Shown here: positions 1,660 to 58,731 of the stretch, in pieces
Layout: the number at the start of each line of letters is the position of its first letter
How positions within the stretch are numbered: position 1 is the stretch's first letter
Program-made: the position numbers and the translations under genes
The notes under the pieces: model-generated
The model's input: the letters and a program-made list of their open reading frames with translations, nothing else
Told to the model about the DNA's origin: nothing
Databases searched by the model: none
Assembly: GCF_021028975.2 (NCBI RefSeq)
Contig: NC_059428.1
Coordinates: forward strand, 80,290,001-80,354,000
Direction: 5' to 3'
Length of the DNA: 64,000 nt
DNA from: Sphaerodactylus townsendi
Lineage: Eukaryota

Positions 1660-2362
1660 TTAATCTTTATTATATTATTTAGAAAAGCATTTGGCATTTT
1701 TAAAAAATATGTTTATATCTTACCAATATGATTTTGATGTTTAATAGTACAACTTAATGTATACCCTCTTTAATACATATAATTTTAATATGAATCTATT
1801 TACTAACTATAGCAGGTGTAATTGATGTCTCTATTTGAAAGTTAAAAAGAGTTCCCACTTAAAAGAACTGAGAAGTTACAGTGAGAGAAAACTTTTGTAT
1901 GACAAAAACAAATTGAATAGAAGTATAGAATATAACTAAAAGTGAATGAAGAGCCCTGCTTTAAATATTATAGCAGATAAAGTAGTTTTAAGTTTTATTA
2001 ATATCATTTTATTTTTTATTAATATCATTTTAATGTACAAAATAAATGTTGTATTAATATTGATTAAACATTAATGATGTTTTATCAATATCATTTTAAT
2101 GTACAAAAGAAAAAATCAATGTTTATTTTTCAATAAGCATGTCAGTATGAAAGGATTGTGAAATTCATATATCAAGCTTGCTTTTTTCTTTTTTAATTAT
2201 ACTTTGAATTGTCTAACTAGTTGTTAATGTAAATTCATTTAATTTCTCTCTCTTTCTTCCTTTCCCTTTTTTGTATTTGTTTCTATTTGTATTTGTGGAA
2301 AATTAATTTAAAATATTTTTAAAGCAATAAGAGATAAAAGAATATGTTAAAAGAAGCCTAAC

Positions 2363-2795
2363 ATAGTGGTGGCGCAGGGGAGAGAGTAGAGGTATAGCTG
2401 GGCCATATTGTGCCTGTTGCACACTCTGCGTTTTCTGCCGCCCCCCCCCCCTGCCCCCCATACACACACACTAACCTTAGTTCAGTCTGAAAGTGCAGGC
2501 TGGAAAAAGCGGCCTGTTCATTTGAGGCTGAAAACAGCTTGGTGGGAACTACACTTCCCACAAGACCTTGGGGCTCGCAAGGTCTCATGGGAAGTGTAGT
2601 TCCCATCAGACCATTTTCAGTCTTAAGTGAACAGGCTGCTTTTCCAGCCTGCACTTTCAGGCTGAATTAAGGCAAGTGTGGGGAGAGCTGCCAGGGAGGG
2701 CCTCATGGATGGGATGTAAGGCAATTTTCTGCCCCCCCCCCCAGGGAAGTGCCTGGTGCAATGTGCACCCCACCCCACCCCCTGGTAGCTCTGCC
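2363..2795. mobile_element. GC-rich non-autonomous DNA transposon-like element with a ~200-bp internal hairpin
   Basis: GC-rich block in AT-rich flanks. Near-perfect inverted repeat spanning 2475-2672, centred on GGGGCTCG. Outer boundaries approximate. Confidence 0.55.
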
Positions 2796-3559
2796 TCTGG
2801 GAGAGAGAGAGATTCACTCTGAATAATTGCCAGTTTGTCAGAGGGAAATATGAACATAAGAACAGCTAATATAGAGAAATGTAATTAAGTACCAAAAACA
2901 TCCCAAAGAAAGCTAATAGAACTTTTTATCTCACAAGAAGACATCTCTGACCTGATCCTTCTTACTCATTATGTACATAGGCACTTTTGAGGATATTAAA
3001 GAATCATAGTGCAGAAGACAAGCAGCAATGGTCTTTTTGCAAATTTTCATCTTGACTAACTAAATAGCGTACATAAATATTCATATAATGGAGTGCTGCA
3101 TGCTTCCTCTTGATAAAGTTGATAATAAAATAATTACTATTAATACTATTATTAATAATTGATATTAATAAAAACTCAAGATGTTGTACACTATAAAATA
3201 TATAACTCTTTCTGTTCCCATGTGGGGGTGCGGATTATGCTATCCATATTATCAACTTCTTGGTGCCTTTTTCACCAGAACTGTCTTTTTCTGTTCCTTA
3301 CATGTCTTCAATAAAATCCTTAAAAACTCACAAGCATTTTATTGTCTGAGCAGGGGACTGACAGTCAGTGAAGGAGCATTTACCCATTTCTAATAGCAGT
3401 ATGGCATTTGAAACATAATTTGGTACACTTTAAAAAGTATCGGGTCATAGGTTACATAAAAGACTTCAACCTGATACTCTGAAAAGTCATTGCAAGTCTA
3501 AGGAAACAGTATTGACCTTGAAGAACCAATGGTCTGATTCAGAATAAGGCAGATTTATG

Positions 3560-4460
3560 TAGACATTTTAGGAGTGTAGGAACCTTCCTGACAACCTGAA
3601 GCAAACCATTCCACATCACGGGTGCCACTACAGAAAAGGAACATTTATGAACTGCTGTTGATCTCTGTGTCTGCAGGGTGATACCTACAGGTCAGATGAG
3701 TGAGACTGTCAAACTGGGCACAGTGAAGAAGTTGTCTTGCAAATATGAGGGCCCAAGACCATGAAAGGCTTTTTACATGATAGTCAGTGCTTTGAACTGA
3801 GTTTGGTAACTGATGGACAGCCAATGGAGTACATTTATAACTAGTGTAAAATGCATGCTCTGCCTATGTTCCAATAATAACCAAACTGCAGCATTCTACA
3901 TCAGCTAGAATCTCCACTTTTTAAAAAGGAAACCTATATAGATTGAATTAGTGATCTAGTCTTAATGGATCCAAGAGGCAAAATCATCAAGGTCAAGGCA
4001 AGTTGCCATCTTCTGAGCTAAACTGAGTTGAAGATTTTTAAAAAGTGTTTTGTTTTGTTCTGATTTGCTTTGCTTTTTGCCACTGCTTTTTGCTATTAAC
4101 ATACTAATCCAGCAATAATACTGAGTCCACGATAATTCATAAACTCTTACCTGATTCAGTAAGGGTCAGCTGAATATCAAAAGTTGGAAGCATGATGTCG
4201 TTCAATACCACAGCCATCCCAACCAGAATTGCTTCTGCACAGTCTGAGTTCAGTTTCAATTTGCTCACTTTCAGCCTTTTAACCACAGCAGTGAGATAAT
4301 GCCTCAAGACCTCTATGTATTGCCAGGGGATTTAGATGTAAAGTTAAGGAGCTGGTTCTTATCACTATATTGATGACATCCAATTCTAAATCTATGAATG
4401 ATTTCTCCTAATAGCATGGGGAATAAGATTGCACCCTGTGGAACCCCACAGCATAACGTA
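3560..4460 (-). mobile_element. Decayed L2-clade LINE fragment (RT and 3' region)
   Basis: ORF 4313-4546 contains CGVPQGAILFPML...CHQYSDKNQL, the L2 GVPQGxILxP and YADDTQL motifs in decayed form. Confidence 0.75.
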
Positions 4461-4689
4461 TTAGACATAATATGTGAAATAATGCAGGAAATAGTATTAT
4501 ATAAGTAGAAAACAATGCAGTGAGAGAAAGACAGTACATATAGCAAACAGATAATACTACCACATGCCTTTAGATTTCAAAGAGGACATTCGTTTGATAC
4601 AGAAACAGGATACTTTACTATCTGGTTCTGAATGTAACCAGTGCCCTCTGAAAGTATTTGTGAAGTTACCTTTCCTTATTATTATTATA

Positions 4690-4875
4690 GATTTCACAGC
4701 TACCATGTCTTTAGCTGATTGTTGGCCTTTCATTACAATTCGAGCCTCACCCAGTGGCCTAGGAAGTTGTAATGTATCGGCGTAGTATTCATGCGGATCC
4801 CAGCAGGGCTGCCTTCTGAATTTGACAGATGTTAATTTTGTCAATTCAAAGATGTTTCAAGTGCTGCCCTAGTTG
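4690..4875 (-). mobile_element. Dong/R4-clade LINE 3' end (5'-truncated)
   Basis: Minus strand reads LGQHLKHL*IDKINICQIQKAALLGSA*ILRRY, an R4/Dong C-terminus. Flanked by (ATT)n and (GTT)n microsatellites. Confidence 0.75.
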
Positions 4876-4924
4876 TTGTTGTTGTTCTTATTAATTTAAT
4901 ATCACAGCTGCCAGTTCTTTAGTT

Positions 4925-5421
4925 TGTTGTTGTTGGCCTTTCATTACAACTCGAGCCTCACCCAGAGGCCTAGGATGTTGTAATCTATCAGCATAGTATT
5001 CATCAGATCCCAGCAGGGCTACCTTTTGAATCCAATAGATTTTGATTTTGTCAATTTGAAGGTGTTTCAAGTGCAGCTCTAGTGTTTTTTGAATGGCATC
5101 CAGGGTGCAGATTACTGGTGAGACTACCTCAATTGCACACTATACTTCTGTCTTTTTGATGGTTGGTCCCCTTGTAGCCCACATGTCAACACATGCCCAG
5201 GGACTTCAGCATGAAATGCAGCTCTTGTTAACCTGCACAATGACCAATGTAGTATAGGATTCTTTTGTATTTGTTTCACCATATTGTATGGGTTGGTGAA
5301 CACTCTTAATCTGGTTTATCGGTCAAGACCTGTCTGGCTTCAGAGACCCTTCTGGTAAAATACACGACCTCCAGCATTGCTCTCAAAGTCATCCTCATGA
5401 CCAGGGAGTGTCTGTGAGGGG
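4925..5421 (-). mobile_element. Internally deleted Dong/R4 element retaining both 5' leader and 3' end
   Basis: 4925-5130 repeats the R4 3' end seen at 4690-4875. 5250-5421 is homologous to the R4 5' region at 7690-7746 and 8201-8330. Ends in (ATT)n. Confidence 0.7.
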
Positions 5422-6282
5422 ATTATTATTATTTTGTTTTTTCCCCTGCCCCTTACTACAGTCTCAGGGCTGTATTATCCTTCACCTAGATAAGGGGAAA
5501 ACATAGTCAAAGGAATGAATCTTGGAAGACTTGCTCCCTGAAGCTTTATCATTTCTGTGATCCAGATATGCATGTGACTACTCTGACATTACAAGAATGC
5601 CAAATGGTTGGTCATTTTTCTTCTGCTCTGCATGATGAAAAAAGAAATGTCAGATAAGTTTTCAGCAGCAATATTTAATCTAAAGAATGGTTAGAGCAAA
5701 AGTGAAGACCAATATTGAAATCAAGATTGTATACAAGGAAAGAAAGATGGTATTCCTGTGGTGTAAAGAAGAGTTAGAGGAGGTGAGTGGAAATGGGATT
5801 TTTCTGCCTAATATATTACTATTTGGGATGGAGGAGAGAATGCATTGATTCATACCTACCACTGGGCTCTCCTCAATGACATATCAGCATGAAGTCTAGC
5901 ACCTACTGGTTAATAGACATTTCCAATAAGATCAATACAGGCTCATCACACAGCTGGCAATATTAAGCATCTTTTCATGGTTGAGCATGTAGTGTTGAGA
6001 TTCTGCCTTAGTTACCTAATTCTCACCTCATGGTTTTTGATGACACAGCTCTAATGTGGTTTTGAATGTGAATAATAATAGATAGGAAAAGACTATGTAC
6101 ATGAACTTCCTGACACTTCTCAGGAGTTTGGTTCTGCATTCAATCTTAAAATACATTTGCCATAAATATATGAAGGTGACTACAAGAAGGCAAAGAAGGG
6201 TAATAAATACAGTGCAAGAACACATTGTATGTACTATGATGCTAGATATGTACTATGACACTATGATATTGTACAGTCACAA

Positions 6283-27594: not shown

Positions 27595-28108
27595 TTAGTT
27601 AAGGAGCAAAGTAGAACCTACTACACCAAGGCAAAAGCAAAACTACAGGAATGCAAAATATATTACATTTAATGTAAAAAAACAAATAAAAATGTGTATA
27701 TCACCCACACACACCCCAAAAAATTGCATAAATGGGTGCATTAATCTAACATGTCATAATTCCATAACAGAAGCATTGGTAATTGAACAGGTATTAAGTT
27801 CAAAAGATTCTGAAGTAATGTCCCACAGAACAGGGCCCTCTTGTAATTGTTGAAAGATTCAATGATTAGTCACATATGAAAGCCACATATGAACAATGAA
27901 GACAGGGAATTCTGGATAAGTCACCCGTTTCACCCTCAGTGTCATGGGACTGATCACTTACAACAACTTAATAGCATGTCCTATCTTGGGAGTCAATATG
28001 AGACATCTTATAATATAAATACAAAAATAACTGAAGGCTTAAAAGCATAAATATCATAAATATAGTATCATGTAAAATACGGTAGTACTAAGTTATAAGA
28101 AGTAGTCT

Positions 28109-29718
28109 TTGGCCCCCACACCCGTCCGGGTGGGGGTGCTGCTGGACTGGCTGCAGCATTATCCCGACAGGCACGTGGTGCGCATGCTGGGTGATGGTTT
28201 TTCGACAGGTTTCAGGATTCCCTATCGCGGCCTCAGGAAGGCCTACCAGGCGAACAACTTAAAATCTGTTCGCGATCACCCTGGCGTGGTGGCCGATAAG
28301 CTTGATAAAGAAAATAGGGCCGGTCGCATCGCTGGCCCCTACAGCCACCCGCTTCTCCCCAACCTCCGGGTCTCCCCCATCGGCATAGTGCCCAAGAAGG
28401 CCCCGGGGGAGTTTCATTTAATTCAGCACCTCTCCTACCCCTGGGGCGACTCAGTGAACGATTACATCGACCCTGAGTTTTGCACAGTCCGGTACGCCAC
28501 CCTGGACGAGGCCGTCAGTCTCATCAGGCAGGCCGGCACAGGTGCCTCCTTGGCAAAATGTGACATCCAGTCGGCCTTCCAGCTCCTGCCCATTTCCCCG
28601 CTGGATTTCAAGCTTCTGGGCATCCACTTCCAGGGCATGTGGTACGTGGACAAGGCCATGCCCATGGGCTGCTCCTTTGCCTGTGCCGCTTTCGAGGCTT
28701 TTAGCACCTTCCTCGAATGGGCCTTCAGGCAGCGGGTGCCCTCCGGGCTGGTGACCCATTACCTAGATGATTTCCTGTTCATTGGCAAGCAGGGCACCAG
28801 GGAGTGCGAGGTCGCCCTGCAGGCTTTCCAGACAATGGCTGCCGAACTGGGGTCCCCCTGCCCCCCAACAAGACGGAGGGCCCCACCCCCGCCCTCAGCT
28901 ACCTGAGCATCCACCTGGATACGGTCCTAGGCACGTCATCACTCCCTTGTGACAAACTCCTGGCCTTAACCAACCTGCTTCAGTCCGTTCTCCCCCTGCG
29001 CAAATGCAGGGTGCGCCTGGTGCAGTCCTTACTGGGCCACCTCAATTTCGCCTGCAGGGTGGTGGCACCAGGCAGGGCTTTCTGCTCCCAGCTGGCGAGG
29101 TCGTTGTCTGGCTGCAAGTCCCCTGACCACCACATCAGGGTCTCCCGGGGCCTGAAAGACGATCTGCGGGTCTGGCTGTCCTTCATCCAAGGCTTCAATG
29201 GCATCTCCTTGTGGCAGACACCTCTGGAGCCCGGCCTGGAGTTGCAGGTGCACTCTGATGCCTCGGGGGCTCACGGTTTTGGCGTGTATTTCCAGGGTCA
29301 GTGGGCACAGGGCCTCTGGCCTCCAGCATGGCACACACAGGGCATCACCAGGGACCTCACTTTTCTAGAACTGTTCACCATCTTGGTGGCGGTGCACATT
29401 TGGCACGATCTCTGGCTCAATAAATGGGTGCTTTTTTGGTGCGATAACCAGGCGGTGGTGCGTGTGGTGAACAGGCAGTCGAGCAAAGCTGCACGGGTTA
29501 TGCGTTTGGTTCGCAATCTTGTCCTCACCTGCCTCACCTATAACATTTCTTTTAAAGCTGCTTTCGTTCCAGGTTTGCAAAATGCGATCACTGATGCCTT
29601 ATCTCACCAGCAGGTGGATCGATTCCGGCACCTGGCCCCCGGGGCGGAGCTGTTCCCGGCGACAGTGCCGGCGTCCCTGTGGAACCTTGGCAGCGAGCCG
29701 TCATCACAGGTGTTTTGA
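28109..29718 (+). pseudogene. Ngaro pol: reverse transcriptase plus RNase H (one frameshift near 28855-28870)
   Basis: RT motifs VSPIGIVPKK, AKCDIQSAF, AMPMGCS and HYLDDF (YLDD at 28760-28771). RNase H motifs HSDASG, FLELFTI, WCDNQAVV and NAITDALS. Confidence 0.93.
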
Positions 29719-30556
29719 ACTCGTTGGCACCGGCCACGCGCAGGCAGTACGACAGAGCCGTGCGCGACTTCCGGAACTACGCAGCGTCCAAGGGGCGCCC
29801 TGTCCGTGGCGGGGTAGACACGGGTCTTCTACTTGAGTATTTGGTAAAACTCCACGGTCGGGGGATGCACCCACGCTCTATGGGGGTGCAACTGGTGGGC
29901 ATCGCCTTTTACTGCAGGGTTTCGGGCTTCCCAGATGTGACCAAGGCGTTTGTAGTTCGCTGGCTGGTGGCGGGCTGGCGGCGGGTGGGCTCCAGACAGA
30001 GGGACCTCCGGCGCCCGGTCACCAGGGAGGTGTTAAGGGCGGTCACTGGGGAGCTGCGGCAGGTGTGCGCTTCACGCTATGAGCGTTTACTCTTCGCAGC
30101 CGCTTTTCACCTGGCGCATCATGGGGCTTTTAGGCCCAGGGAGCTAGTCGCCCCCACCGGGGACCGGCCATCCAGCACTGCGCTGCAAAGGGAGCACCTA
30201 GTCCTGTCCGGGGACATGGTCTATGCGTGGCTTGCCCATTCCAAAACCGACCAGGAAGGCCGCGGTGCCCCCTCGCCTCCCTCATCTCTTGGCTCTGGCA
30301 CAGGCCTCGCATGGGTGGCATGCTCCTGGTACACGAGGACGGTTCCCCCCTCACCAGGTTCCAGATTCTGGCGGCGTTCAGGGCATGCTTGGCTCGGGCC
30401 GGGCTGCCAGTCGCCGAGTTCGGGTTGCACTCCTTCTGAATTGGGGCCGCCATGGCCGCTGCGCAGGAGGGCAGGGCCCAGGAGGACATCCGCACCTTGG
30501 GGAGGTGGCGGTCGGGGGCCTTTGGGGCTTACATCCGCCCCCATCTGACTTGTTGA
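29679..30556 (+). pseudogene. Ngaro tyrosine recombinase (frameshift near 30270; H-x-x-R Arg replaced by a stop at 30437)
   Basis: SLAPATRRQY, GAFRPRELV, HSKTDQ.GRG, LTRFQ, GLHSF*IGAA and GRWRSGAFGAYIRP. Confidence 0.92.
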
Positions 30557-30568
30557 TTCCCTTCACAG

Positions 30569-31177
30569 TGCCTCCAGGGACGCCGCAGACTGTTTTTCGA
30601 CAGGTGTGGGTCGTGGGGCACAGCCTCGTCAACGGAGTCGGGGACTACGCCTGCTCATCTGACTGGGGCCAGCATCTTGGACTCAGGGCTCATGTAAGGA
30701 TCACCTGGCTGGGGCAAGGGCACATGCTTTGGCATGAACTCGAGCCCAAGCTCATCGAGTACATTTTCCAGTTGGCCACGCCGGATCTCCTAGTTATTCA
30801 CCTGGGGGAGGAGGATCTCTCGGCCAGGTCCGGTCTGGAACTCCGTTGGGCGGTGGCCGCCACGCTTCGGAGCCTCGCCAGGCATCGGCCCGGCATAACC
30901 TTGGTCTGGTCCGAGCTGTTGCAGCGGGTCCACTGGAGGGGAGCTGTGGACCCCACTGCCGTGGACAGGGCTTGCAGAAAAGTCAACAGGGCGGCCGCCA
31001 AGGTGGTGCTCTCCCTCGGGGGGGGCGGTGGTGGACCATGCTGAGATCACCCAGGACAACAAAGAACTTTTTGAGCCGGATGGCGTCCGCCTGTCCCGCT
31101 GGGGCATGGACTTGTGGCTTCAATCGGTCCGGTACACCCTCCTCCGCTGGGTCCGGTCCAGACAGGCTCAGGCTTGA
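30569..31177 (+). pseudogene. SGNH/GDSL hydrolase-like ORF of the Ngaro element (frameshift in the G-run near 31020)
   Basis: VWVVGHSLV (block I), WLGQGHMLW (II), LVIHLGEEDL (III), LVWSELLQR, LFEPDGVRLSRWGMDLW (V). Confidence 0.85.
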
Positions 31178-31344
31178 GGAGCTTGGGCGGGGAGCTGCAA
31201 GGGGGGCAGCTCGTGGTGGGTTTGCAATGGGTGTCGCACATCTGGGGAGAAAACGAGCCTTCCGGCTGGGTCTCCCAGGCTTGTGCCCTGTGGAAGGGCC
31301 GGGGGGTGGGGCGGGCAGGCTGGCAGGCCGGCAGGCCGGGCCGC

Positions 31345-31475
31345 TGCCCGACACCCCAGGGAGTGGGGTTGGGTCGGGCCGATAGGCGGCCAAGGGCTTA
31401 GCCGGTGCCCGACACCCCAGCAAGCAAGGAGAGGAGGGTGGGCCGATAGGCGGCCATGGGCTTAGCTGGTGCCCG
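31345..31475 (+). repeat. ~62-bp tandem direct repeat in the Ngaro 3' region
   Basis: The unit TGCCCGACACCCCAG...GGGCCGATAGGCGGCCAWGGGCTTAGCYGG occurs twice plus a partial copy. Confidence 0.85.
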
Positions 31476-32559
31476 TCTCCTCAGCAGGGGCGGGAAGGGT
31501 GAAGCCGGAGTGTTATCTCTGGGGCTTCCCTTCCCGTCAGTTTCCCAATGGAGATTGGGATGTGATGTGCGACCCGTTTGCCGCCCAGCTCTTTTGTACA
31601 TAGTTCATGTTGATTATGTTATTGAATAATTAATAAACTGGGCTGCGGCCCATTCCTTTCCAGCCTGTCGTTGTTGTGTGATTATTGAGCGAAGTAAAGT
31701 CTCACCATCTGCAGCAATAATGACTTGTTATTCTTTCCCCTTCATTTTTGACAAAATACAGATTTTATGGAATCTCTTCACATACCATTTGCCTTAATAA
31801 AATCTGTTGGGCTGGATTAAAAGAGGAATCACAAAAGAAAACATTAATTGTTAATCAAGCAGAGACGGAGATATGGCCAACTGGTATGGCTAGAACTGGC
31901 TAAATCTCAGGACACAATTACATCCATCTCCTGACACCACTACAATATTTTGATCAAAATGTAATAAAAAGGAATTCCTACAAATCAAATACATTGGATT
32001 AGTTACTAAGCAACACAGATAAACAAGGTCAATAACTGTGTATGCTGTAAAACTGTGCTTTTAACCTCCCTGTCCCATGCAATCTTCTATGTGATCTGGA
32101 CCCTGGCTACATTCATATCACATGTTAATATCAATGGTAGGTGCACCTCAAAATGTGACTGGTTTTATTTTGTTTCTGGGATACCACTGTCTGCTAGCTC
32201 AGTGCTCCATACTGATTCCTCATTTTTAATCTGAATCTTGTTAGAGTAATAAAGCTACTTGCTGGTTGAGTGTTTTGGCTCTCTTCTATTCTTCCTTTGT
32301 CTTAGATTTAATCTGAAATTCCACAATCCCTCACTCATGTCTCATCCCTTATCTTTAATCTGTAATAAACAAATTTGCTTCACCATCTTTTTAAGCACTT
32401 GCTGTTGAAGTGCTTCTTTGTAAGTGAAGAGAAGTCCTTCCCATTGAAACCATGTAAACCTTATTTGGTTCTTCCTTAAAATGTCCACCAAACATGCATA
32501 GTCTTTCCTTTTCTGTAAGACTCCTAAAGGTATTTTTTCCCATCACAATGGACTTGGCA

Positions 32560-33300: not shown

Positions 33301-33609
33301 TTAGGAGAACCAACAGGCTGTGGCTAAGGATGAGTAAGTGGGAAGAAGGAAGAGCTCTGCTCTCCCCGTGGGGAGCTCCTTGCTCTTGGCCCGCTTTGCC
33401 CCATTCCAAACTGCGAAACCGGCCAATGACCAGAGGAAAGCAAAGAGAATGGAGAGGAAACAAAGGAAGGTGAGTAGAAATGGAAGCAAGAGAGAAGGAG
33501 AGTGAGAAAAGGCTGCAACCAGTCTCCTTCCGGGCCTTACACGAGACACCAACCAGCACTACCATGCCTTGCTGGGTCTCGCCGCCGGGAAGGGTGCGGA
33601 CTGGGAGAG

Positions 33610-33660
33610 GCGTCCTTATATATCCTGGCTCCTCCCGCCTTTACGGCTGGGAGCCAATCA
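33610..33660 (-). promoter_or_regulatory. Compact Pol II promoter-like motif set (CCAAT box, GC box, TATA box)
   Basis: Minus strand reads GATTGG (33659-33654)...GGCGGG (33639-33634)...TATATAA (33622-33616) in canonical order within a CpG-rich block. Confidence 0.4.
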
Positions 33661-34172
33661 TTGCACCCGGTTCTGCAGCATGCTGCCAAGCCATGCATGC
33701 CCCTTATTTTGCTACGTTGCTCACCCCGGCAGCAATGGCTGCCCCCCGGTTATTCGGGTGCATCTAATTTACTGAAGTCAGAATTTCTTAGATAAAGATA
33801 TGGGGGAAGTTTGCAAAATTCACATCCACACAAAACATTAGCAGTTTTATTGGCTACTGAATGTCCCATCAAAATATGTCTTTTCCCTTACCAATCAGCC
33901 AGATTTTCTCGCACCACCCTAAATAGCTTCACATAAGTGAGTGCCATGTTCATTGCTACCATCAGCACTAAGAAGCCTTTTCCATAATGTTTTTTGCTAA
34001 CAAAACTGTTCTTACTGCACCCCTATGAAGCAAATGCTATTAATATATTTGACAGATATTTTTATTAAATGAGTAATATTTTGATGGAGGGAAAGTTGTG
34101 TAGCTATTCCCCCCCACACACACACACACTTTTTTCTTGTCTACATGTTTGATACCCTCTTGTTATCTGCAA

Positions 34173-52209: not shown

Positions 52210-52504
52210 CACTTCAGTGGATGCGCTTCATGTACTCATAGGTGGACGCACAAAACATCAGGATGATGATGAAGAAGAAATTCTTGGCTGTTGGTCAATA
52301 AAAGGTGGGAGTATATTTAATTATTGTGAGCCAGATTCTTGTGATTGTGACTAAAGAGGCTGAAGAAGACAAGCAGTTGAAAGTATTGGTTTTTCCCGGT
52401 CAATACTCCCACCTTCTATTGACCACAAGCCAAGAATTTCTTCATCATCATCCTGATGTTTTGTGCGTCCACCTATGAGTAAATGAAACTCATCCACTGA
52501 AGTG
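52210..52504. repeat. ~100-bp inverted repeat with an 88-nt spacer containing a decayed hammerhead core (Penelope-like)
   Basis: Arms 52210-52314 and 52403-52504 are near-perfect reverse complements. The spacer contains CTGAAGA A GAC AAGCA GTT GAAA. Confidence 0.75.
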
Positions 52505-56389: not shown

Positions 56390-58135
56390 TAGATCATTTG
56401 TTAAAGCGAGCTGGGAGGGAACATGGAAGCCAGAGGCTCTTGCTTAGGAACAGTTGGCTCTGATTAATGTTACAACCCCCCCCCTTTTTTTCCCCTCCAC
56501 CTGGGTCACAGTTTGGGCATCAATCAGCCAGGCATCAGTGCATTAGGGGCTGCAACTCTACCCCTCCTTCCTCTGTGCATAGCATCTTTTGTGATTTTTT
56601 TTAAAAGGGGAGCTATTGAATGTTTATTTTGAACAATAATACTGATAGTTCCTGTTATCTTACGTGAATCTTTTTGGAATAGTGTGTTTACATGAGCAGC
56701 TTGTTTGATCATTGGAAATATAATGGTACCTAAGCCAAGGTTCCAAGGAACTAGGTCCTGTGACCCCGTCGCAGCAAGAGCTTCAAAGAGGGGGCAGGCA
56801 AATCTGAGAAAGCACGGATACTTGCCCAGCAGCAGTAGGCCCACGCCTGCCCCCATGCTGCCCCAAGGCAAACCCTCAACCCCGCGGACAGCTCAGGCTG
56901 TGGCAACTGCGAGCACTCACAGAACAAAGAGGGGTAAGGGCACTTCACCGCCACCCAGAGCAGGGGCAAGGACTAAGGCCACACTCCCGGCCCCTAGCCC
57001 AGGTACCCTGGCAGTTGTCCCCTTGCTAGTGGGCTCTTTGGGGCATAGTGGCACCCCGCCCACCCCCGCCACCCCAAATTCATGGGTTGCAATGGGTAAC
57101 TTGCTAATGCAAGGTATGGTAAAAACACTCGTCCAGTTCCCTCAGAATCCTAACTGGACGCCGAGCGAACCCCCTCTCCCCAGCACTAGTGCGCAAGCTT
57201 CTAGCCCTGATCCACAGAAGGGTTCCCCAGGGGAAAAATTTCTGCTTCATCCCTACAGGATGGCAGGAAAACCTTCAATGACTCAGCGTCTTCTATAGAA
57301 AGGGAGAGTGTGTCATGGGCTCCTGCCACCCATCCAAGGAAGAAAAGCAGGAAGTTGTCTCACTGGAGAGCTCATCATCAGGCTACGGAGAGCTCGTCGT
57401 CCTATGAGGACTCCTCTGATGAGGACTTTGCCCATGCAGATGGAGCATATTGAGCAGCAATGGGTGGGTTCCCCCTCACTGCCTCCTGTTTTAGCCAAAC
57501 TGATGGACACGAGCCTGGCTTCCTTTGCAGAGGCTCCACTCCACCCCCACAGGCCTGGATAATGACATAGCAGACACCCTATCCCACTCCCAGGTGGAGA
57601 GGTTCCGAGCCCTGGCTCCTGAGGCCAAGGCCCTGCTGGAGCAGTTCCCACATGAGCTTTGGAACATTGGCGACACTGGATAGGACTTAGGATGCTCAAG
57701 TCACTAGCCCCTTCCACTTGGCACACATACCAGGGCACGCAGCATGGCTTTTTAGATTTTCAGAAGGTCCATACTAGCCAGGTCTTGGAAGCTTTCCACG
57801 AGGGATCTCTCCTGAAGTACTTGGACCATCTCCGGTGCACCGGACAATCAGCTAAGACTTTATGTTTATTCTTAGCAGCAGTGGCATTTTTTTTTTTGCA
57901 AGGTCTCATGGTTGCTGATCCTTCACGCTCTTTTCTGGCATGGCAAACTGTTAAGGGATGGGATGGGCCTCAGCCAGGAGACGGGATGGTTGTCATCCCA
58001 TCACACTGGACCTGTTGTCACAGCTAGCAACCATCCTAAAGTTTGCTTTCATCAGTATTAGAAGCTACTGTTTAGGGTGGCATTCTCATTGGCATTCTTT
58101 GGCGCAGCATCAAAATTGTGGCTGCTTCCAGGTGA
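56390..58135 (+). mobile_element. Internally deleted Ngaro-type element (5'/gag part joined to RNase H end and YR N-terminus)
   Basis: Pro-rich ORF 56705-57298, then GLDNDIADTLSHSQVERFRALAP..LWNIG (RNase H end) overlapping EHWRHW..KSLAPSTWHTY...DPSRSF..HPITLDLL (YR). The RT core is absent and the element is truncated by a MITE. Confidence 0.8.
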
Positions 58136-58140
58136 TATTA

Positions 58141-58731
58141 CCGTATATGCTCGTGTATAAGCCGAGTTTTTCAGCCCTGTTTTAAGGCTGAAAAATGCCC
58201 CCTCGGCTTATATACGAGTCACTGCTTACCAGCAGGCTCTTCAGGCCTCTGCCGAGGCTGGGGGCGTGGCCGAGACAACCTCCCTGCAGCTGCACAAGCT
58301 GCTTGTTCCTGCCCTCCTGGGAGGGTGAAGGGGAACCCTGGCTGGCTGGGCTTCCTCAATGACTCCCCCCCCGACACGTTCAAATAAGGAGCTCCCTCCA
58401 CCTCCTGGCTGCCTGGGCTTCCTCAAACCCAGTGGGAGGTGGAGGGAGCTCCTTATTTGGGCAGTGATTCCCCCTGATGTCATTGCTCAAATAAGGAGCT
58501 CCCTCCACCTCCTGGCTGCCTGGGCTTCCTTAAACCCAGCCGGGAGGTGGAGGGAGTTCCTTATTTGGGCAATGACATCAGGGGGAGTCACTGCCCAAAT
58601 AAGGAGCTCCCTCTGCATCCCGGCTTCCCACCTTTGGCTTATATGTGAGTCAATACGTTTTCCCAGATTTTGGTAGTAAAATTAGGTGCCTTGGCTTATA
58701 CACGAGTCGGCTTATACAGGAGTTTATATGG
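58141..58731. mobile_element. Tc1/mariner-pogo (Tc2/Tigger-like) MITE with TA TSD
   Basis: TA|CCGTATATGCTCGTGTATAAGCCGA...TCGGCTTATACAGGAGTTTATATGG|TA. Confidence 0.85.

Follow-up and report, generated by a model that had tools for sequence, protein, structure and literature searches.

Retroviruses and errantiviruses express env from a spliced mRNA, and among these cases is an env that keeps the first codons of gag. Ngaro retrotransposons with a hydrolase are described, in the accessible parts of the respective papers, with the gene order gag, RT/RNase H, tyrosine recombinase (YR) and hydrolase, with split direct repeats and without a methylase (PMC7192593, PMC4157794, PMC6681497, PMC3783388). 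According to similarly partial accounts, Ngaro elements are usually free of ORF overlaps (PMC3266345), and the YR of fungal Ngaro can share the frame of RT-RH or be frameshifted relative to it (PMC3783388). The accessible text of PMC7192593, PMC9341512, PMC6681497, PMC3266345, PMC3783388, PMC8547959, PMC5633606, PMC4495291, PMC4157794 and PMC13583293 does not explain by which route the ORFs of YR retrotransposons are expressed. Likewise, no splicing or frameshifting route to YR, hydrolase or pol of Ngaro or DIRS elements was found in the accessible literature; the original Ngaro papers and review by Goodwin, Poulter and Butler, which lie outside it, or Repbase may mention spliced ESTs. Ribosomal frameshifting of the +1 type has been described, in the accessible parts of the sources, for influenza PA-X at UCC_UUU_CGU, where a CCC codon in the E-site lowered shifting without abolishing it (PMC3498833), and for amalgaviruses at UUU_CGN (PMC5009743, PMC5052127). 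DIRS and Ngaro elements are not mentioned in the accessible text of the frameshift paper PMC5009743.

The window, i.e. the whole stretch of 64,000 nucleotides of the Sphaerodactylus townsendi genome (1.81 Gb) that was analysed, contains one of the many copies of an element family designated family A (Table 1). This copy is 5'-truncated just past the gag stop and its 3' end is the B repeat. Gag and the gag donor are missing, and each remaining frame is interrupted: the RT region (whose RNase H stop is TGA 29716-29718) by the loss of 1 nt near 28848, the C-terminal half of YR by a 40-nt deletion near 30265 and the hydrolase, which lacks a conserved ATG of its own, by a 1-nt insertion near 31018. 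Consequently, the window copy cannot itself use the site as proposed below, and the signal has to be regarded as a property of the family. The inverted 5' piece, which lies 1.6 kb from the gag-less copy, holds an A repeat with a TATA-like box, the 5' leader and the first gag codons and stops short of the gag donor; both pieces are possibly two halves of one rearranged insertion. The window furthermore contains long inverted repeats at 14683-14844, 2467-2680, 52210-52504, 58380-58647 and 1526-1657, which resemble small non-autonomous DNA transposons.

By its repeat and gene organisation the element is a Ngaro-type retrotransposon. Self-alignment of L032 revealed split direct repeats in the order A..B A B, with a 208-nt A at both sites and a 509-nt B present twice. 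Full-length relatives carry a gag-like ORF, RT/RNase H and YR in this order on one strand, the YR homologues carry a Phage_integrase domain, and the optional Ngaro hydrolase ORF is present 3' of YR, with the motifs GHS, GEED and DGV. No methyltransferase domain was found after RNase H, the pol of intact copies ending about 40 residues past DALS. A DIRS1-like retrotransposon was rejected on the grounds that the terminal repeats are direct, not inverted, and that a methyltransferase is absent. Gene order, split direct repeats and the absent methylase are shared with the Ngaro elements with a hydrolase as described in the accessible accounts, which report overlapping ORFs or a frameshifted YR and no expression route, whereas in the present element the overlap, a donor, acceptors and a shift motif are conserved. 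Many family A copies (L031-L050) end after a single B repeat like the window copy, others show B A B. In several divergent families (L081, L084, L085, L087, ~2100-3800) units of 65-145 nt are arranged in tandem arrays in the 5' part.

Table 1. Coordinates of the element and of its predicted expression signals; positions refer to the window unless a locus is named.
Feature	Position	Strand	Basis or remark
Ngaro-type retrotransposon copy, family A	28104..31717	+	93% identical to L032 element positions 1850-5495
RT/RNase H coding region	28106..29718	+	RVT_1 Pfam match, E 1.6e-7
Branch-point-like CTGAT; its TGA is the last YR-frame stop	29591..29595	+	TGA in 29/30 family copies
Predicted YR 3' splice site, pyrimidine-rich run with tandem CAG CAG	29596..29613	+	other families have a single CAG at the homologous place
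Dual-coding stretch, in which the end of RNase H overlaps the codons predicted to open the YR exon	29614..29718	+	translation
YR coding region, no ATG	29614..30556	+	catalytic block HSFRIG..Y at end of intact copies
Predicted hydrolase 3' splice site	30545..30577	+	CTGAC 30545-49, YR stop 30554-56, CAGs 30566-68 and 30575-77, both phase 1
SGNH/GDSL-like hydrolase coding region	30569..31175 (end approximate)	+	Lipase_GDSL_2 at E 0.016, short of the cut-off
Inverted 5' piece of family A	33362..33771	-	92% identical to L032 element positions 8-417
Site homologous to the YR splice site in copy 3 (divergent, internally deleted)	57577..57599	+	CCCTATCCCACTCCCAG|GTGGAG
Predicted +1 frameshift site CCC TTT CGG, gag end of divergent minus-strand copy	19902..19910	-	sequence
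CCC TTT CGN in L034	L034, 5150-5158	reverse	sequence

We consider it highly probable, judging from the sequence patterns described in the following, that YR and hydrolase are spliced onto a leader encoded by gag. For the YR, the spliced RNA would join a donor inside gag to the CAG that ends the DALSxxQ codons of RNase H, and the product would be a Gag-leader-YR fusion starting at the gag ATG. Splicing of the same donor to an additional acceptor immediately 3' of the YR stop would lead to a Gag-leader-hydrolase fusion. The unspliced RNA would provide Gag and, probably through +1 frameshifting of ribosomes at CCC UUU CGN, Gag-Pol. All products would share a leader of ~200 residues, which has a basic run of Arg/Lys and a run of Ser at its end. 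Two acceptors, the gag donor and the shift would then explain four proteins from one RNA.

The first-pass annotation of the window had stated that the YR frame opens after the TGA at 29592-29594 without an ATG ahead of the conserved SLAPAT block. This is borne out by translation of the window, in which the frame extends from stop to stop over 29595-30548 with no Met before SLAPAT. Relative to the RT/RNase H ORF it lies in -1, with ~41 dual-coded codons and LWNLG of RNase H over VEPW of YR. The overlap had likewise been read correctly in the other copies: copy 3 displays LWNIG over LEHW at the site equivalent to that of the window copy, and the minus-strand copy does have the LEPW noted for its YR frame. 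In addition, LWSLG was found in the RNase H frame of the minus-strand copy, whose DALS site has been lost by a deletion. The equivalent of the dual-coding stretch is stop-free in the YR frame in all of the 26 family A and L100 copies counted.

The consensus of branch points is yUnAy, and the branch-like motif around the TGA is located 19 nt ahead of CAG|29614. Two CAGs (29608-10 and 29611-13) offer possible exon starts at 29611 or 29614. The second AG is favoured, predicting an exon start at 29614 in phase 1 to YR, since the second CAG is the one that has homologues in the other families. For family A, 30 of 40 match places were aligned, and CAGCAG was present in 30/30. Four of these copies have local indels, and among the 26 that are in register over the site an upstream ATG, which had been named as the finding that would speak against the annotation, was present in none. 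Copies within family A are 89-97% identical, too alike for a synonymous comparison to inform.

DNA searches of the genome yielded 139 loci, of which 29 had no in-frame match over the site; removal of 13 duplicates from the other 110 left 97 unique copies in 34 clusters, and 13 of the 97 had no intact anchor. Codons are numbered from the Asp of DALS. As a heuristic rule, an acceptor was taken to be an in-phase YAG 16-33 nt after a stop, with at least 10 pyrimidines in 15 positions and no AG immediately upstream. Such a site follows the last YR-frame stop in 70/84 copies and 0/87 other -1-frame stops in six pol segments, whereby the rule was set post hoc, the copies are related and the independent evidence amounts to about three positions in six clades. 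Among the 14 copies without it are all 4 of family C, which possess the +6 CAG without a branch-like stop.

In family A the last YR-frame stop is located at the Asp codon (CTGAT) and the CAG at +6, and a CAG at -11 occurs in 0/26 copies. In clades B, E and F a CAG is present at -11 in 31/31 copies, and the last stop lies 6-7 codons ahead of it in 30/31 (-17/-18, TAAC). Clade D carries YR-frame stops at +8, +9, +20 and +22, of which +20 and +22 are fixed (CTAAC, CTGAC), together with a CAG at +26 in 12/12 copies counted. Its +6 CAG is retained in just 5/20 copies and has decayed to CAA, CAC or CTC in 15/20, and its +4 Arg is encoded mostly by AGR. In the copies outside clade D, CAG stands at +6 in 73/77 and CAA in none, compared with CAA in 22/85 control Gln codons; two clade B copies with CAC at +6 retain the -11 CAG. 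A conserved ATG of the YR frame was found in none of these groups. On this evidence the predicted acceptor is at three different Gln codons, and the frame boundary shifts together with the CAG. Clade D is predicted to use the downstream Gln codon, the DALSxxQ acceptor having been lost. Clades B, E and F probably use the upstream (-11) acceptor, although both -11 and +6 are open there, which renders the site in use ambiguous. Two stops downstream of +6 in L087 were considered as a refutation and set aside, as they are fixed in clade D and lie upstream of the +26 acceptor. The three acceptor states form clades in an unrooted tree of the upstream pol DNA, which comprises 45 rows, several of them long or poorly filled, from copies of this genome.

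Any Gln CAG in the RNase H frame is automatically in phase 1 to YR, and the pyrimidine counts of used and unused sites overlap. The pyrimidine run is largely a by-product of the amino acids. More telling are the branch-like stop, the choice between CAG and CAA/CAC and, at the Arg codon, that between CGC and AGR. In this respect two claims of the first-pass annotation were modified. A pyrimidine bias at synonymous sites had been expected: the run derives mostly from the encoded residues, while the CAG and CGC choices and the branch-like stop seem to be selected. The statement that the DALSxxQ codons double as a splice acceptor stands insofar as these features appear to be under selection, with DALSxxQ being merely one of three acceptor positions. 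The features of a U2-type 3' splice site are all found for the YR under the heuristic rule, i.e. branch motif, pyrimidine tract, YAG and a phase matching the donor.

For the donor, the GT sites between promoter and YR were scored in the full copy L034 against the donor consensus, with a threshold of 7/9 matching letters. Three sites reach 7/9, and one of them, G|GTGAGT, which follows gag codon 207 at position 4407 of the L034 reverse strand, has phase 1, as the YR CAG requires. GTGAGT is present in 17/20 family A copies and, across divergent families, at the homologous place of gag in 21/21 copies with a located gag end (21 of 42 long loci, the other 21 being left out). In 13 of them it is in phase 1 and the gag frame is open; the 8 copies with downstream indels have it locally in phase 1. 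The residues encoded over the donor vary (GES, SEY, SEL, SES). Its Ser codon is AGT in 19/19 cases, in contrast to TCN in each of the 56 Ser codons immediately preceding it, and T invariably begins the codon that follows. A retro-copied gag-YR or gag-hydrolase junction was searched for in the genome by exact degenerate patterns of family A, with 0 matches, which counts against the splicing reading.

Further upstream, the 5' leader of family A (L034, reverse strand, 3649-3779) contains a possible short intron with GTAAGG in 20/20 copies, a long pyrimidine tract and a variable AG before the gag ATG, and a similar tract and CAG precede the gag ATG of L199. An ATG formed across this leader junction was rejected, as AT precedes the leader donor in 1/20 copies and the ATG would be out of frame.

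That the hydrolase is fed by a 3' splice site of its own had also been suggested in the first-pass annotation, and a matching acceptor was indeed observed. The region 3' of the YR stop holds a branch-like motif along with a pyrimidine tract, and it usually has a pair of YAGs spaced 9 or 12 nt from each other. The hydrolase start could be located in 31 of 42 long loci (11 were left out), and a pyrimidine-rich YAG in phase 1 was present in 30 of these 31 copies; 6 have a YAG in phase 0, and no copy has one in phase 2. At this acceptor CAG and TAG replace each other, the spacer varies from 12 to 55 nt, and an in-frame ATG is found in 3/31 copies. The paired in-phase YAGs (30566-30577 in the window, and homologues) could yield two hydrolase isoforms.

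Pol is in the +1 frame relative to gag. The motif CCC TTT CGN is found in the gag frame ~80 nt before the gag stop in 20/21 gag-bearing copies, with TGG in 1, whereas elsewhere in gag CCC accounts for 31/67 Pro, TTT for 18/32 Phe and CGN for 43/74 Arg codons. The motif may be preceded by as few as 8-10 codons of open pol frame. In the distant metagenome element L199 CCC TTT CGT occurs as well (position 2230), and pol opens 8 codons upstream. A conserved UUU_CGN in the zero frame inside the overlap with a +1 ORF is the pattern known from PA-X, and we regard +1 frameshifting at CCC UUU CGN as the likely route to pol. An in-frame ATG at most 40 codons after the motif in 13/21 copies speaks against it. 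The likeness to PA-X and the amalgaviruses, taken from the accessible parts of those papers, consists in UUU_CGN in the zero frame, a downstream gene in +1 and Arg encoded by CGN, not AGR; it differs in that the E-site codon here is CCC and that the Ngaro site is a predicted one. A pol acceptor was rejected: the CAG before the TPV motif of pol is in phase 0 in family A and not conserved, and phase-1 sites occur in 6/21 copies at scattered positions. The earlier suggestion that alternative 3' splicing from one promoter may feed all genes agrees with the acceptors of YR and hydrolase and is not borne out for pol, which is without a conserved in-phase acceptor.

A protein search with YR returned 27 proteins. 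RefSeq models of the lizard Hemicordylus capensis, which are gene predictions, join one 134-residue leader to YR (P0006, P0034, P0037, P0039) and, at other loci, to the hydrolase (P0040, P0041, P0043, P0044). These models span two subfamilies, and the start of the leader resembles the gag of family A; similarity of the leader to the gag leaders studied here is weak (best E 1.5e-4, low complexity). Their junction Gly is followed by 21 residues up to xEPW, the count predicted for an exon start at 29614. No full gag protein with the Hemicordylus capensis leader was found in a protein search. In the frog models P0002, P0005 and P0017 long acidic Ser-rich leaders are joined to YR nearer to the RNase H stop, which suggests a fourth acceptor position in amphibians. 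Four distant metagenome elements (36-47% identity) were furthermore compared. Three of the four display a stop at the Asp codon, embedded in CTGAT or GTGAT, and the CAG at +6. L197 possesses a hydrolase acceptor in phase 1. In L199 a GTAAG is found in phase 1 within gag, but YR also has downstream ATGs, and L198 lacks the Gln and carries an ATG in the YR frame. A hydrolase-like ORF in L199 (3-614) precedes gag instead of following YR and may be part of a neighbouring copy.

Other ways to produce the YR were weighed against splicing onto the gag leader. Initiation at the NTG of xEPW, which would serve as a near-cognate start, from a subgenomic RNA, by re-initiation or by internal entry, appears very unlikely. 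All 73 copies counted do have NTG followed by G at xEPW, and some RefSeq YR models begin at a Met near xEPW (P0001, P0004), but the NTG is forced by the Leu-Trp codons of RNase H, and an ATG, one synonymous change away, is present in only 4/73. Moreover, such a start would maintain neither the 21-38 stop-free codons upstream nor the donor. Extremely unlikely is a Pol-YR fusion produced by -1 frameshifting of ribosomes in the 41-codon overlap. The overlap is open in both frames, and a frameshifted YR occurs in fungal Ngaro as far as the accessible account goes (PMC3783388); however, an X XXY YYZ heptamer between the last stop and the RNase H stop was found in 1/84 copies, and the gag donor, the co-variation of the CAG and the hydrolase acceptor in a non-coding gap would be left unexplained.

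The two remaining readings concern the acceptor itself and its partner, and both are hardly credible. The look of an acceptor might be a by-product of the RNase H amino acids, with a frame that is open by chance: DALSRFQ, NISFSAQ and PDFFPQ are pyrimidine-rich through their residues, TAA and TGA look like a branch motif, and the copies are related. Yet none of the 87 control stops shows the pattern, the synonymous choices are lineage-specific as predicted (CGC versus AGR at +4, CAG versus CAA at +6), and the by-product reading would leave no expression route for YR. Genuine splicing from another donor, e.g. the GTAAGG that family A carries in its 5' leader, combined with a translation start further downstream, would draw on the constancy of that GTAAGG and on the pyrimidine tract before gag. 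Against it, the leader exon has no conserved ATG, no YR ATG follows downstream before SLAPAT, and the lizard models have a coding leader.

Splicing of YR and hydrolase onto the gag leader resembles the spliced env of retroviruses in that one promoter would serve all genes, Gag and Gag-Pol would come from unspliced and the 3' gene from spliced RNA, and the acceptor lies within the end of pol. It differs in that here the integration enzyme is predicted to be spliced, the gag leader comprises ~200 residues, and two acceptors would serve two 3' genes. We lean, with some reserve, towards the view that animal Ngaro elements follow an ancient retrovirus-like plan, in which a gag leader would be joined to YR or hydrolase by alternative 3' splicing and to Pol by a PA-X-type +1 frameshift, while the YR acceptor would hop among the Gln codons of RNase H. 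The plan comes with predictions at nucleotide level, namely one donor, two acceptors and one shift site. If true, a long basic Gag leader would precede both the recombinase and the hydrolase and could direct them to particles or the nucleus, and a retroelement case would be added to UUU_CGN +1 frameshifting. It would furthermore represent splice signals moving within a protein-coding gene, and RefSeq models in lizards and frogs that are labelled 'uncharacterized' would be accounted for as element transcripts.
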